Shown one piece after another: positions 6,632 to 53,058 of a DNA stretch of 64,000 nt; the stretch's first letter is position 1; each line of letters opens with the position of its first letter. The position numbers and the translations under genes are program-made. The notes beneath the pieces are model-generated. The model was not told where the DNA came from. It saw nothing but the letters and a program-made list of their open reading frames with translations, and made no database searches. Source of the DNA: a bacterium (GTDB taxonomy: Bacteria; UBA8248); NCBI GenBank assembly GCA_965204535.1, contig OZ241996.1, forward strand, positions 1,529,654-1,593,653, in the 5' to 3' direction.

Positions 6632-7468
6632 ATGCCGAACGACAACCCGAAAGGATATGCGAACCCCGACCTGCTCTGGTCGGCAGTACTTCTCAAAGAG
6701 CGCATGGACGACCCGAATTTGAGAATCATCGACACGCGCCCCGGCGAGCGCTATACGATGGGCCACATCCCCGGCGCGCGGCATTTCGACGTCTACGGCG
6801 TGAACAGCGACGACTCGGACGAGGCCCCCTTGAGGAATTTCTTCTCCATGTGGGCGTTCCTGCTCGGGAACCGCGGGGTGTCGTTCGAGAACACCATCGT
6901 CTTCTACGACGACTTCGTCGGCAACACGAGCGTGCGCGGCTTCTGGATGCTGGAGCTTTTCGGCCACAAGGACGTGCACGTGCTCGACGGCGGCTACGGC
7001 GCCTGGGAGCGGGCGGGCTACGAGACGACGCGCGACGCCGAGGTGCCAAAGGCCGCTGCATTCGAGATGGCGTTCGAGCCGGATCGCCTCGCCACGCGCG
7101 AGGACGTGCTGGCGGCCATCGAGGACGACAACCACATGCTGCTCGACACCCGCTCGGTTGAGGAGTGGGAGGGGCGCAGCATGCGCGCGAAGCGCAGCGG
7201 CATCATCCCCGGCGCGGTCTGGCAGGAATGGCTCCAGCACCTGACGCCTGAGGGCGAGATGAAGCCGGCGGATGAGCTTCGCGCGCAGTTCGAGGCCATC
7301 GGGGTCACGCCCGACAAAGAAGTGACCACCTACTGACAGACGGGCTACCGTGCGGCGCACGGTTACTTCGCCCTGCGGCTTCTCGATTACCCCAAGGTGA
7401 GGAACTACATGAGCTCCTGGAAGGAATGGGGCAACCGAGACGACACGCCCATCGTCCAGGCGCAATAG
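6632..7468 (+). CDS. Two-domain sulfurtransferase (rhodanese/SseA-like), probable selenoprotein with Sec at TGA 7334-7336
   Basis: GHIPGA, VLDGG, LLDTR and GIIPGA motifs. The in-frame TGA sits at the catalytic Cys (TTY-U-QTGYRAAH). The frame continues through the conserved 'VRNYMSSWKEWG' to TAG 7466-7468. Confidence 0.88.
7337..7375 (+). promoter_or_regulatory. Putative bacterial SECIS element
   Basis: ACCGTGC-GGC-GCACGGT hairpin (7347-7363) with a lower GGGC/GCCC stem. The G-first apical loop starts 18 nt after UGA. Confidence 0.7.
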
Positions 7469-44490: not shown

Positions 44491-45639
44491 CTATTTCTGT
44501 AATAAAAATAAAAACTCTCTATTTGGCCTCTCGACTTCCGGCAACCATTCATTCGTCCACTTCATCGTCGCCATCACGTTTCGCTTATATTCAATTGCTA
44601 AAGTCTTAACAAGTTCTCCATTGTCTCTAATTACCTCATTTAGCTCATTCGCCGTCGCCCTTCCGCCAGAACTGTAAGAAAGCAAAACCCACTCACATGG
44701 CGTTTGCTTGAGCAAACGATCGATTGCATCTACCACAACAAATTTCCCAGAAGCATTCCTGCGAAATTCCTCGAATACCGAGATCGCCACTTTGTCAGAT
44801 GTGTCTTCTCTTCGTAACGCTTTTCCAAAAAGCGGGGGTTCGTCGTTTCGGCAAATTGTGGTCCACAGATGATAATATGAGGCGTATCGCACCCTCGAAG
44901 GAGGCATCTTTTCGTTATTCGAACCATACGGCGGATCATAATAGGCGAGATCGACATCAACACTGGGAAGAGATTCGAAAACATCACCGCACAAAACTGT
45001 ATGCTCGATCTCGTTTCGCCATAATTGGGGAACTTTCAGCCTTAAATCCTTGAATGAACGCAAAGACCAGCTTTTCAGGTATGAAACAAAATGGCCAATT
45101 GTGCTATCTACTTCGTCCAACGCAAGAATCAGGCTCGTTAAAGCCACGCTTTTAGAAATTTCATCGAGACGTAGGCTATCTATTTCTTTTCTTATAGCGT
45201 CGAGTTTTCTAGTGTTCTTTTTCTGCCAAGGCTTCTTGGTACCATCACTCTGGATAGCGTTGTCACATTCGCTAGCATTAACTTCTCCACCGTAATTCTC
45301 GGTGAACCAACCATCTTCGGGAGGAAGAGAATTCAAATGATCGATAAGTGATTGATATTCCTGTAGATTTTCAAGATTCTTCAAATAACATGTGCCAAAA
45401 ATTCTTGACCACTCCGAAATATCATTCGATACCACTTGGTAGCCCGCTTTGGCGAAAGCTTGGCTTACTCTAGTGGAACCCGAGAAGCCGTCGAAAACGT
45501 TTTTCGCGCCGGTCTTTTTCGACAATTCAAGGATATAGGGAATCAATTTGAGCTTGGAGCCGATGTACTTGATGCCCTCGGTCGTAGGTGTTTCAACGAA
45601 ATTATCGAAAAGCAAACCCTGCTCTTGCATCATGTTCAC
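44491..45639 (-). CDS. N6-adenine DNA methyltransferase (D12/Dam-like alpha class)
   Basis: 'KYIGSK', 'DGFSGS' (motif I) before 'YDPPY' (motif IV), 'LSYS'. The GTG start overlaps the upstream stop. Confidence 0.9.
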   Translation of the reverse strand: MNMMQEQGLLFDNFVETPTTEGIKYIGSKLKLIPYILELSKKTGAKNVFDGFSGSTRVSQAFAKAGYQVVSNDISEWSRIFGTCYLKNLENLQEYQSLIDHLNSLPPEDGWFTENYGGEVNASECDNAIQSDGTKKPWQKKNTRKLDAIRKEIDSLRLDEISKSVALTSLILALDEVDSTIGHFVSYLKSWSLRSFKDLRLKVPQLWRNEIEHTVLCGDVFESLPSVDVDLAYYDPPYGSNNEKMPPSRVRYASYYHLWTTICRNDEPPLFGKALRREDTSDKVAISVFEEFRRNASGKFVVVDAIDRLLKQTPCEWVLLSYSSGGRATANELNEVIRDNGELVKTLAIEYKRNVMATMKWTNEWLPEVERPNREFLFLLQK

Positions 45640-46481
45640 CTGATATTTGAAAATCGCTTGAGTCGAATAATATCTTCTTTAATTTTTTCAAGAGCCTCAT
45701 GATGACCGGTCTCGGTAGATACGAGTGCATGAGAGAAGAGCTTAACTAAGACAAGATTATGAGAGTAATCGATCCAGCCTCCTGTAATGCTGTCAAAGTA
45801 ACCCAACCCATTTTTCGTATGAGTCCAAAGGCCCCTTTGGAGTGCATTTGCAGTTGCATCTCCATAACGAACCTCACAAACGTAGGCGTCATTAGCGTTA
45901 TAAAATCGATACACAGGATGTATTCTGCCTCTCGTTCCCTCCTCTCTTGAAATTCTGACTGTTTCGGCCTCTGCACGACGATAATCGAACACCAGAATAT
46001 TACAACGTTGGGACTTTTCGTCATAAATAAGAGGCAAGACATTTATGTTTCGAAAATCGGAAAAAGCAGTATCGGAGAATACTCTTTGAACGTTTTCTCT
46101 TCCTGTAATATCCGCGTTTTCCTGCTCTAGCCGCGGAAACATCTTGAAATTTTTATCTGTGGAAAGTTGAAGCGGTCCGTCCCCATAAGCTTTCAAGCTA
46201 ACTGGAAATTCAATCTTGGTTATTTCGTTAATTATTTTGATGTCCTCTTCTTTCGATTTGGCTCTATACAAATCTTTACCCACATGTTCAGAGCGAAAAT
46301 CATACATATATTGGTTGATGAACTCGGCTATAGCGATTTCCGCCAGATCCCCATGTGTCTTATTCCCGATGAGACGCATAGTAAATATATTGCTCAACGT
46401 CGTTGTGATTAAACCCGGGTGTTTTTGGACAAGAAGTTTCAGGCGTGTCGTGAAATCTTTGTAAGGATCGAACTGATTCAT
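45636..46481 (-). CDS. Putative type II restriction endonuclease
   Basis: Translationally coupled to the MTase, AT-rich, PD-(D/E)xK-like 'G..AE...EDI...VSLK' pattern. Confidence 0.65.
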   Translation of the reverse strand: MNQFDPYKDFTTRLKLLVQKHPGLITTTLSNIFTMRLIGNKTHGDLAEIAIAEFINQYMYDFRSEHVGKDLYRAKSKEEDIKIINEITKIEFPVSLKAYGDGPLQLSTDKNFKMFPRLEQENADITGRENVQRVFSDTAFSDFRNINVLPLIYDEKSQRCNILVFDYRRAEAETVRISREEGTRGRIHPVYRFYNANDAYVCEVRYGDATANALQRGLWTHTKNGLGYFDSITGGWIDYSHNLVLVKLFSHALVSTETGHHEALEKIKEDIIRLKRFSNIR

Positions 46482-46637
46482 CACTTAACCAATTCCATAG
46501 GCCGAAACGCGACCAGCTACCTCACTAACAGAGGTTTTTATCCGATCGATTCTGTAATTGGGCGGGATTGTAATAACTGGTACATTAAGTGCAACTCTAT
46601 GATAACCCTATATCTGTAATTTTCCAAACGACTCCCC

Positions 46638-50021: not shown

Positions 50022-50239
50022 GGGGCTGTTGAAAAATTCCCCTTTTCAGGGGGTAGAGGGGGCATCCCTCTCGACTGAAAAGCAACCCCCCCTACCCCCC
50101 CTTGTCAGGGGGGTATAAAAAGGCGATGCGCCCCCGCTGGGCTGAGGGGGTTTTGCTTTTTCTTGCCCCCCTGACAAGGGGGGGTAGGGGGGGTTGCCTT
50201 TATGGGATTTCCCTTTCAGGGGGTTTTTCAACAAGCCCC
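50022..50239. mobile_element. 218-bp MITE with terminal inverted repeats and a 5-bp target-site duplication
   Basis: Ends GGGGCTGTTGAAAAA / TTTTTCAACAAGCCCC. TTACA on both sides (50017-50021, 50240-50244). Internal IR CAACCCCCCCTACCCCCCCTTGTCAGGGGGG. Related copies near 609, 10162 and 59829. Confidence 0.82.
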
Positions 50240-51148: not shown

Positions 51149-51326
51149 ATTCACTCCCCCCTTGAGGGTCTGGCTTCCCAAGGGGAAAGCCAGACGGTGA
51201 GCTAAGGGCGTCAGCCCGCAAGCGAACCGGTGGGGGGAGATTTTTTCTGTGGCATGTCCCCCCACCGAATCGGCCTTCGTCCAATGGACTCGGCCTCTTC
51301 GACTCCCCCTCAAGGGGGGAGTGAAT
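51149..51326. repeat. 178-bp palindromic miniature element
   Basis: Perfect 20-bp TIR ATTCACTCCCCCCTTGAGGG / CCCTCAAGGGGGGAGTGAAT, with internal hairpins (GTCTGGCTT..AAGCCAGAC). Confidence 0.75.
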
Positions 51327-51397: not shown

Positions 51398-51988
51398 CTA
51401 TCCCGACACCTGCGCGACTTCCTCCCATTCCTTCCAGCCGATGATGTCATCGGGCGGCTCCACGGGGTTGTGGAGGCCGTCCTGCAGGCGGTTCCAGGCG
51501 TTGAACAGGCAGGTGAACAGCGTGAGTTCCACGATATCCTTTTCGCTGAAAAATTGTTTAAGCGGCGCGAAACAGGCGTCATCGGCGGCGGCGGTGTTTC
51601 TCGTGAGGGCCGTCGCCCAGCGGATCACCGCCTTTTCGCGCTCATCGAAGAGGTCGCTCCCCTCCCATCCATCGACTATCAAAGCGATATGTTCGTCGTT
51701 CAATCCGGCAGCTTGACCAAGCTTGACGTTGTGGTTCGTTCATATCTCGCAGTCGTTGATGAGCGAGGGCGTCAGGATCGCCAGCTGCATCAGGCGCATT
51801 CTGGCCGAATCGGTCCGCCACTGGCTCCGCAGGGCCACCGTCAGGCTCATGATGTGGCGCAGCGCTTCGGGCGAATGGGCCAGGGCGCGGTAGAAGCTGG
51901 GCACCGTGCCCCACCTTTCCCTCGATTGTTCAAAGAGCGGTTCGTGATCGCCTGCGGCGTCATCGGGTACCGGCGTGATTCTCGACAT
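51398..51988 (-). CDS. AhpD/carboxymuconolactone-decarboxylase-like peroxidase-related protein, probable selenoprotein (CxxU; TGA at 51740-51742)
   Basis: ORF-track pieces 51740..52018 and 51398..51703 share a frame and are separated only by TGA: 'LINDCEI-U-TNH'. The C-half has 'FDEREKA', 'F..KDIVEL', 'FNAWNR'. ATG 51988 has an AAGGAG RBS. Confidence 0.88.
51710..51739 (-). promoter_or_regulatory. Putative bacterial SECIS element
   Basis: mRNA AGCUU-GGUC-AAGCU hairpin (+17 to +30 after UGA) with a G-first, GU-containing loop. Confidence 0.68.
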
Positions 51989-52133
51989 CTCGGTCTCCTT
52001 GTGCGTCGGAATTCGCAATGTAATGTCATGCGGGTGTTTCCCTCATTTTTAGCAGATTTCCGGGGTTGTCACCAAGGGTCGAGCCCAATCGAGCAGGGGA
52101 TGTTGAATCACCCCCATCAATCGGGTTTGGTCT

Positions 52134-52347: not shown

Positions 52348-53058
52348 ATGGAGCACCAGAAGATCCTCATCATCTGCGCGCATCCCGACGACATCGAGTT
52401 CCGCTGCGCAGGCTCGGTCGCCAAATGGACCCGCGAGGGCCGGCGCGTGGCGTACTGCCTCGCCACGAGCGGGGACAAGGGCGTGAACGGCCCCGAGTCG
52501 CGCCGCATGACCATCCAGGAGAAACAGACGATCCGCGAGCGTGAGCAGCGCGCGGCGGCGGCGGTCGTCGGCGTCGAGAAAATCCACTTCCTGCGCCATA
52601 CGGACGGGGAAGTCCGCAACACGGCCGAACTCAGGCGCGACCTCGTGCACGTGATGCGGGAGTGCAAGCCGGACCTCGTGATCGCCGACGACCCGGCGAA
52701 CGACGCCTTCGACAGTTTTTACGGCTACCACGGCGACCACCGCGCCGTCGCGGAGGCGGTCTTCGACGCGCTCTACCCCGCCGTCGGGAACGAGAATTAT
52801 TTCCCCGAGCTGCTCGCCGAGGGTCTGGAGCCGCACACGCCCAAAGAGGCGTATTTCAAGACGATTCCCGGCGCCGACACCTGGGTGGACATCACCGACA
52901 CGTTCGATCTGAAATTAGAAGCGCTCAAATGCCACGAGAGCCAACTCGATGATTTCGAGGAAATGGTTCCCCTGCTGCGCGACTGGGCGAAACGCTCGGG
53001 CGAGGCGGGCGGCCTCGAATGCGCCGAGTCCTACCGGCGCATGGAGGTGCCGCAGTAG
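52348..53058 (+). CDS. PIG-L/LmbE family deacetylase
   Basis: 'AHPDDIE', 'TSGDKG', 'REREQ', 'HGDH', 'K.EAL.CHESQ'. Confidence 0.9.
   Translation: MEHQKILIICAHPDDIEFRCAGSVAKWTREGRRVAYCLATSGDKGVNGPESRRMTIQEKQTIREREQRAAAAVVGVEKIHFLRHTDGEVRNTAELRRDLVHVMRECKPDLVIADDPANDAFDSFYGYHGDHRAVAEAVFDALYPAVGNENYFPELLAEGLEPHTPKEAYFKTIPGADTWVDITDTFDLKLEALKCHESQLDDFEEMVPLLRDWAKRSGEAGGLECAESYRRMEVPQ

Follow-up and report, generated by a model that had tools for sequence, protein, structure and literature searches.

Within the window (the whole stretch of DNA that was analysed, 64,000 nucleotides), the minus strand carries two ORF fragments in one frame with a TGA between them, and the question is whether they are separate or decayed genes or a single gene whose TGA encodes selenocysteine (Sec). 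The preliminary description had joined the fragments through one TGA, and this joining proved exact on the minus strand: the frame runs from the ATG at 51988 to the TAG that terminates at 51398 and comprises 196 codons, with the TGA as codon 83 in the context I-N-D-C-E-I-U-T-N-H-N. Under table 11, translation yields two products instead, of 82 and 101 residues. As described below, the fragments belong to a single intact gene, which encodes a small redox enzyme, and, judging from sequence comparison, its UGA codon 83 almost certainly specifies Sec. The features are collected in Table 1.

Table 1. Features of the locus, its neighbours and other selenoprotein genes of the genome (positions in the window, or on contigs C1 and C2 where so marked)
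Feature	Position	Strand	Basis or occurrence
Predicted AhpD/CMD-fold selenoprotein gene, TIGR01926-like, HN subgroup, 196 residues	51398..51988	−	29/29 orthologue rows with one TGA
In-frame TGA, codon 83, predicted Sec; aligns with second Cys of CxxC	51740..51742	−	homologue alignment
Cys80, first position of CxxU, likely resolving thiol	51749..51751	−	translation, alignment
His86-Asn87: His at +3, Asn at +4 where AhpD and PA0269 carry the relay His	51728..51733	−	alignment
Gln68 instead of the relay Glu, 12 residues N-terminal to the first Cys	51785..51787	−	alignment
Shine-Dalgarno AAGGAG, 6 nt upstream of the ATG	51995..52000	−	sequence
SECIS-like hairpin, 5-pair stem, GGUC loop at +22 after the TGA	51710..51723	−	covariation, codon constraint
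PIG-L family deacetylase, divergent, BshB1/Mca-like below cut-offs	52348..53058	+	22/28 orthologue loci
Rhodanese-type sulfurtransferase TGA, T-Y-U-Q-T-G, the window's other predicted selenoprotein	7334-7336	+	aligned with Cys of paralogue
AhpD-like gene with two in-frame TGAs, U-Y-G-U (loci L121/L254)	C2:2008491-2009087	−	TIGR01926, 87.7 bits, over cut-off
CoA-transferase alpha subunit (PF01144), TGA in E-H-A-U (locus L103)	C2:146781-147605	+	candidate selenoprotein family
Two genes of TIGR01244 type, sulfur transferase-like, with H-U-K where the catalytic Cys would be (loci L093, L120)	C1:709387; C2:1923896	+; −	

Conservation of the TGA and its hairpin

Matches to the protein were found in 47 of the 60 relatives searched, and the TGA is present in 150/150 among the matches listed, with 325 further matches beyond these. 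The orthologues, 29 rows from six genera at 58–99% identity with the genome under study (G000) included, contain one TGA each, and its position is identical in the 28/28 that were parsed. For ten orthologues compared in detail, no second stop occurs within 100 codons after the TGA, and the 3′ half is conserved as well as the 5′ half (63–69% versus 60–61% identity in the most distant genus). The TGA codon aligns with the second Cys of structurally solved homologues. The preliminary description had named a TGA not shared by homologues and a decaying 3′ half as signs against a selenoprotein; instead, the same TGA recurs in 29/29 rows and both halves are conserved. Its statement that AhpD-like selenoproteins are mis-annotated as split genes is likewise borne out. 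Among 1.84 billion protein representatives, the two best matches correspond to the separate halves, one of 82 residues that stops ahead of the TGA and one of 100 residues from the second half, and public collections keep the 82-residue N-terminal product in 15/15 members of its cluster. The gain for annotation is a hidden selenoprotein that these collections cut in two.

In RNA libraries of close relatives, from two studies, contigs span the TGA with no listed change there, in data whose strand is not readable and which may include DNA; over 16 kb the RNA coverage is patchy and unsuited to ranking genes. Many such contigs land on two intergenic non-coding elements of the window (51149-51326 and 50022-50238), both MITE-like, bounded by perfect inverted repeats of 20 nt and containing hairpins. 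A metagenome scan with one paralogue as query returned 8 close loci only, all with TGA and none giving a functional hint. Promoter and terminator scans gave results at chance level.

The genome (4.56 Mb, 2 contigs, 95.7% complete, 5.3% contamination) is equipped for Sec insertion. Absence of tRNA-Sec or SelB had been named in the preliminary description, which proposed a check of selABCD, as evidence against recoding. Here tRNA-Sec scores 75.9 bits against a cut-off of 47, and selA, selB and selD each exceed their family cut-offs, with selD carrying an in-frame TGA of its own. TGA is also the commonest stop and terminates 1152 of the 2501 training genes, which indicates recoding rather than a changed code. 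A genome-wide reassignment of TGA to Trp or Gly (tables 4/25), without involvement of selenium, would account for the many genes that read through a TGA, but this explanation is practically negligible in view of those terminated genes, of a tRNA-Sec that is the only UCA tRNA at the default threshold, and of read-through sites that align with Cys.

Downstream of the TGA, the hairpin AGCUU-GGUC-AAGCU spans +17 to +30, and its loop lies at +22, where the preliminary description had placed it. Its GGUC core presumably resembles that of the SECIS loop of E. coli fdhF. The stability of the hairpin (−3.8 kcal/mol for 27 nt) does not differ significantly from chance (z +0.19), and when 45 nt are folded another fold has the minimum energy (z +0.89); stability was consequently dropped as evidence. 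When GG-loop hairpins were counted behind every TGA triplet of the genome, no clear peak emerged. The specific arrangement is rare: a GGTC loop at +22 with at least 5 pairs follows only 9 of the 130,163 genomic TGA triplets, and 7 of these 9 belong to AhpD-like genes. When the same peptide was recoded with random synonymous codons, a GGTC loop with at least 4 pairs arose in 0.5% of trials and any GG-loop in 5%.

Covariation points in the same direction. Among 30 distinct orthologue and paralogue rows, it reached 0.389 versus 0.170 in shuffled alignments (0/500) and exceeded all six slid controls, and 87% of cells pair, these counts being inflated because the rows are related and the structure was derived from one of them. 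The closing pair is U-A in 22/30 rows and C-G in 8/30, which exchanges Gln and Arg in the protein; the number of additional pair types in these 30 rows did not exceed that in the shuffles (306/500). The Gly codon of the loop is GGT in 28/28 orthologues, a codon that makes up 9% of the genome's Gly codons, and it is the sole single-codon column among 23 conserved four-fold columns. Collectively, these sequence patterns argue that a hairpin just 3′ of the UGA, with a G in its apical loop, is under selection, in which RNA-level selection would override codon choice and even amino-acid choice. In a separate observation, the Ile codon preceding the Sec codon (51743-51745, minus strand) is the rare ATA in 27/27 orthologues having Ile there; ATA, which makes up 21% of Ile codons before T, also occurs at both Ile-preceded Sec sites of the genome.

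The remaining alternative for the TGA is that of a true stop, which would leave a pseudogene or two separate small proteins. Gene callers do split the gene, the TTG at 51703 could begin a 101-residue product, and the hairpin is weak, so the proposal has a basis. Nevertheless, it is extremely improbable, since the same TGA is retained in 29/29 orthologue rows of six genera, both halves are conserved, synonymous constraint falls exactly on the hairpin, and homology to Cys proteins runs unbroken across the TGA codon.

Fold, active site and relatives

The best NCBIfam model, TIGR01926, matches with 67.7 bits at E 1e-18 and does not reach its cut-off of 81.8, and the Pfam CMD match scores 19.8 bits against a cut-off of 23. 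The protein was accordingly filed under the AhpD-like CxxU kind by its motif and nearest model, and not as a TIGR01926 member above the cut-off. Two further models match weakly, and the protein is a member of neither: NF053654, the YciW-related (seleno)protein (E 1e-14, 54.6 versus a cut-off of 310), and NF041238, AhpD_rel_CFYUT (E 5e-4, 19.6 versus 175). The AlphaFold2 model, in which Sec was modelled as Cys, has a pLDDT of 94.8 and ten helices, and the top Foldseek matches are Atu0492 (2GMY), Deinococcus radiodurans AhpD (6K40, TM 0.76), Bmp8 (6OHI), Mlr4105 and PA0269. The model thus predicts an all-helical AhpD/CMD fold with a redox helix hairpin, and the AhpD/CMD-like assignment of the preliminary description agrees with it.

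The active site departs from that of AhpD. According to the published passages (PMC3141380), the relay comprises Glu118, Cys130, His132, Cys133 and His137 in Mycobacterium tuberculosis AhpD and Glu36, Cys48, Tyr50, Cys51 and His55 in Pseudomonas aeruginosa PA0269. The corresponding places here are held by Gln68, Cys80, Ile82, Sec83 and Asn87, i.e., three of the five residues are replaced, and a His is found at 86. The AhpD-family redox motif claimed earlier therefore stands in part: the CxxU motif (C80-E-I-U83) aligns with CxxC, whereas the canonical relay E-x11-C-x-[HY]-C-x3-H is broken by Gln68, Ile82 and Asn87. The His of the claimed motif, at +3 from Sec, is not equivalent to the catalytic His of AhpD, which lies at +4, a place occupied here by Asn.

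Position 83, His86 and Asn87 are invariant in 40/40 hand-picked "HN" sequences, and Cys80 is nearly so (P0010 lacks it), the invariance of His86 and Asn87 being partly a product of selection because the alignment was chosen for the HN motif. All 40 of these sequences match TIGR01926 at E ≤ 0.001 (best E 4e-22). His-Asn also occurs in 26 of the 81 database homologues having the motif, Cys forms included; the pattern is therefore not explained by Sec alone. The relay Glu is kept in 30 of the 41 homologues with His at +4 versus 9 of the 27 with Asn. Two database proteins (P0025 and P0032) are homologues of about 360 residues in which the cut tail of an AhpD domain is fused to a Cys-less second domain; they are probably two-domain selenoproteins truncated at their TGA.

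The closest solved structures are those of PA0269 (2O4D/2IJC/7XW1) and Agrobacterium Atu0492 (2GMY, Foldseek E 5e-7), at about 30% identity. Both share with this protein a helical hairpin with a CxxC-type motif, but they retain Cys and the +4 His (PA0269 also Glu36 and Tyr50), whereas the present protein carries Sec along with Gln68, Ile82 and Asn87, and has an additional N-terminal arm. PA0269 is described as a weak thiol peroxidase (PMC3141380). M. tuberculosis AhpD has the same two-helix redox hairpin, of which Sec replaces the second redox position here; unlike in that enzyme, Glu118, His132 and His137 are unmatched, no ahpC is linked, and the motif topology differs (PMC3141380). The tetrabromopyrrole debrominase Bmp8 (6OHI/6OHJ) resembles this protein in length class, fold (TM 0.72) and marine setting, yet it shares only 17% identity and is a Cys enzyme from a biosynthetic cluster, while no halogenated-pyrrole cluster is present here.

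AhpD-like selenoproteins with a CxxU motif were described in 2005 from 27 Sargasso Sea sequences (PMC1088965) and, as "AhpD-like 1", in 2008 from 299 sequences of the GOS data (PMC2398784); Table 1 of a 119-family inventory lists the family as predicted and not experimentally verified (PMC13188914). With its CxxU motif, single Sec, in-frame SECIS and best NCBIfam match to TIGR01926, the gene resembles this family (COG2128/TIGR01926); its score falls below the TIGR01926 cut-off, and it has His-Asn after Sec and Gln in place of the relay Glu. It is an ordinary, well-supported member of a selenoprotein kind known since 2005, with an altered active site worth noting. The AhpD-like selenoprotein family, its mis-annotation and the Sec-richness of UBA8248, the clade that probably includes this genome, are already in print.

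The genome contains 14 family matches, 11 of them with an in-frame TGA. Nine HN-type paralogues are 31–39% identical to this protein, and genomes of the family have 1 to 15 HN-type copies, with at least one in 41/41. Sec and Cys forms are interleaved in the tree, with at least 4–5 changes, and a single Sec clade, or one recent expansion of Sec paralogues, was rejected (AU p 5.7e-6). Whether the HN group is monophyletic depends on the tree: a quick tree of 91 rows supports it (SH-aLRT 97), and one of 37 rows does not resolve it. The paralogues have mixed neighbours. At locus L035 (C2:1074989-1076052, plus strand), the gene immediately after a CxxU CMD-like gene is a paralogue in which both redox residues are missing. 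Nine Sec paralogues thus occur in one near-complete genome, in a family without a tested selenoprotein member, and natural Cys counterparts together with natural loss of the relay make the questions of Sec versus Cys and of the relay directly testable. In the published passages that were consulted, nine HN and 14 AhpD/CMD-clan Sec genes per genome was a level not found described.

Candidate functions

On balance, we favour an intact Sec gene for a general oxidant or disulfide reductase of AhpD fold, in which Sec83 would attack and Cys80 would resolve. SelB with Sec-tRNA would bind the GGUC hairpin 22 nt past the UGA, using the machinery found in the genome, and the ribosome would insert Sec. 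The chain is predicted to place C80-x-x-U83 at the start of helix 81-93 of the all-helical fold. The selenolate of Sec83 could then attack a peroxide, a hypohalous oxidant or a disulfide, Cys80 would close a selenenyl-sulfide as the resolving thiol, and a cellular dithiol (thioredoxin/glutaredoxin-type, lipoamide or a small thiol) would re-reduce the enzyme. Because position 83 is invariant in the 40 sequences and Cys80 is not, Sec83 is favoured as the essential residue; the attacking position differs within the superfamily: Sestrin2 is described as retaining the first Cys alone (PMC4674687), and the product complex of Bmp8 is a C82A mutant according to its PDB title. With the Glu/His proton relay of AhpD replaced, the acid-base role probably falls to the invariant His86, and the enzyme may therefore act on a substrate other than that of AhpD. 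Each of the nine deep paralogues would have its own share of the substrates.

A role as an AhpD-type adaptor, passing electrons from dihydrolipoamide to an AhpC-type peroxiredoxin as in mycobacteria, would fit the shared fold and the CxxC-equivalent motif, and the genome does contain 13 AhpC/TSA matches, 6 of them with an in-frame TGA. This role is nonetheless quite unlikely, since the protein departs from the relay described for AhpD and PA0269 at three of five positions, and nine paralogues are many for one adaptor role. In addition, neither the window nor the neighbours scanned at 11 orthologue loci include an adjacent peroxiredoxin, and no reductase or halogenase gene adjoins the gene. The last of these bears on a further proposal, a Bmp8-like reductive dehalogenase whose Sec83 would remove halogen from brominated aromatics in the manner of deiodinases, detoxifying or using host metabolites. 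Bmp8, which is described as dehalogenating (PMC7918430), is a relative in both sequence (E 1.6e-18 with the family profile) and fold (Foldseek rank 7, TM 0.72). Moreover, relatives were found in sponge and marine metatranscriptome runs, three deiodinase-like selenoprotein genes occur in the genome, and the AhpD relay is altered. Dehalogenation is still unlikely, as Bmp8, with 17% identity, is a more distant relative than Atu0492, PA0269 and D. radiodurans AhpD, and halogenase or bmp-like genes were not found among the neighbours scanned.

The gene neighbourhood (SDR, PIG-L, EamA, ABM, adenine deaminase-like and sugar ABC genes) is a weak functional lead. It makes the PIG-L deacetylase a possible functional partner, and small-thiol conjugate turnover, with the selenoprotein reducing mixed disulfides or S-conjugates alongside this divergent deacetylase/amidase, may be considered. 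The PIG-L gene, located upstream, accompanies the orthologues in 22/28 loci of three genera, and among NCBIfam models it scores best with BshB1, BshB2 and Mca. However, all these matches lie far below their cut-offs, the two genes are divergent and not co-transcribed, kin share gene order for non-functional reasons, and PIG-L is absent at five loci of three other, more distant genera and on one short contig. The SDR gene, found downstream in 18/28 orthologue loci, is missing from the same five loci. We regard such a partnership as rather unlikely and retain the general oxidant or disulfide reductase as the preferred reading. Elsewhere in the window (44491-46484, minus strand), a D12-class adenine methyltransferase is followed by a 282-residue ORF without a Pfam match, which is probably its restriction endonuclease.

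A broader reading would join several of these elements. The relay-less HN group would be an unrecognised branch of the AhpD clan outside peroxide chemistry, and its nine ancient Sec paralogues per genome would be reductive dehalogenases or electrophile reductases tuned to halogenated compounds of a sponge host, within one of the largest bacterial selenoproteomes, which would include a diselenide-type (UxxU) AhpD not described before and a CoA-transferase that depends on Sec. As a whole, this reading is doubtful and must be considered an unlikely conjecture. In the openly available passages that were consulted, neither the HN group nor a UxxU AhpD or Sec CoA-transferase is described.

The predicted selenoproteome of the genome

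A selenoprotein-rich genome had been suspected from two cases within the window, and a genome-wide TGA search supports this: it predicts no fewer than 58 selenoprotein genes, with 59 TGA sites between them. Candidates were drawn from coding-potential, hairpin, motif and self-homology scans of the genome. Of 61 read-through candidates compared with NCBIfam, 45 were kept (8 with Pfam too), and these were added to 13 established earlier, giving 58; the other 16 were dropped, having no family match or a TGA at a gene junction (GrdE stop, SDR/AcpS). No two of the 58 genes are more than 70% identical, so strain duplicates do not inflate the count. The AhpD/CMD clan contributes 14 genes, UGSC 8, OsmC and DsbA-like proteins 5 each, and deiodinase-like, Prx-like and PrdB-like proteins 3 each. 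Rhodanese, Grx, Trx-like and TIGR01244-type genes number 2 each, and GrdA, GrdB, DsrE, ArsC-like, DUF3179, CUAEP radical SAM, SelW-like, CoA-transferase alpha and SelD are represented once each. No TGA was found inside nine molybdopterin-enzyme matches or two MsrA genes. Hairpin loops at the 59 sites include GGTC, GGC, GTA, GTG, GGA, GGG and GTT; the variation of SECIS loops within the genome that was proposed earlier (GGC versus GGUC) is thus seen in at least seven loop types.

The congeneric genome G007, of which 79% was used, was compared by nucleotide alignment over 2.4 Mb. It covers 40 of the 59 TGA sites, and all 40 keep the TGA. A comparative scan over 2.05 of the 4.56 Mb passed 32 sites, 27 of them already listed, against 10 and 5 in the TAG and TAA controls, and gave no convincing new site; the 469 sites of a first comparative filter, mostly in antisense frames, had been discarded. 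In Table 2 of BSepDB (PMC13326102), the maximum is 63 selenoproteins, in the Olavius Delta 1 symbiont, and three UBA8248 MAGs are listed with 54, 50 and 48. The count of at least 58 is close to this published top of 63, with counting methods that differ from those of BSepDB and with families outside the inventory included. A record size (>63) is not supported, as the comparative scan added no convincing site. The genome merits a dedicated selenoproteome study.

Several of the genes deserve separate mention. The AhpD-like paralogue with two in-frame TGAs has an intact Glu/His relay, and both TGAs are kept in 23/30 among the loci listed, from three genera, the other seven being CxxU sisters; its sister gene in this genome (C2:218319-218894) is also CxxU. 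In the 119-family table, as far as it was consulted, AhpD-type families are only CxxU, UxxU AhpD is absent, and so are CoA-transferase and TIGR01244 entries (PMC13188914). In the CoA-transferase alpha subunit, the TGA aligns with a Cys of the gene's own paralogue, its position having been checked in G000 and G007. One TGA is present in each of the best 35 matches (35/35; 63–100% identity, five genera), and a strong hairpin with a GGC loop is found. The UxxU AhpD-like gene and the Sec CoA-transferase would, if confirmed, add families to the bacterial selenoproteome. The TGA of the TIGR01244-type genes is kept in G007.

The same read-through contexts recur at C1:192163/C2:2965217 and at C1:209352/C2:8639, i.e., between about 192–220 kb of C1 and the ends of C2, which suggests an assembly overlap or a duplicated element; the set of 58 genes is not affected. 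In the window's rhodanese-type gene, the TGA is followed by a 7-pair hairpin with a GGC loop at +18, and this TGA is likewise kept in G007.
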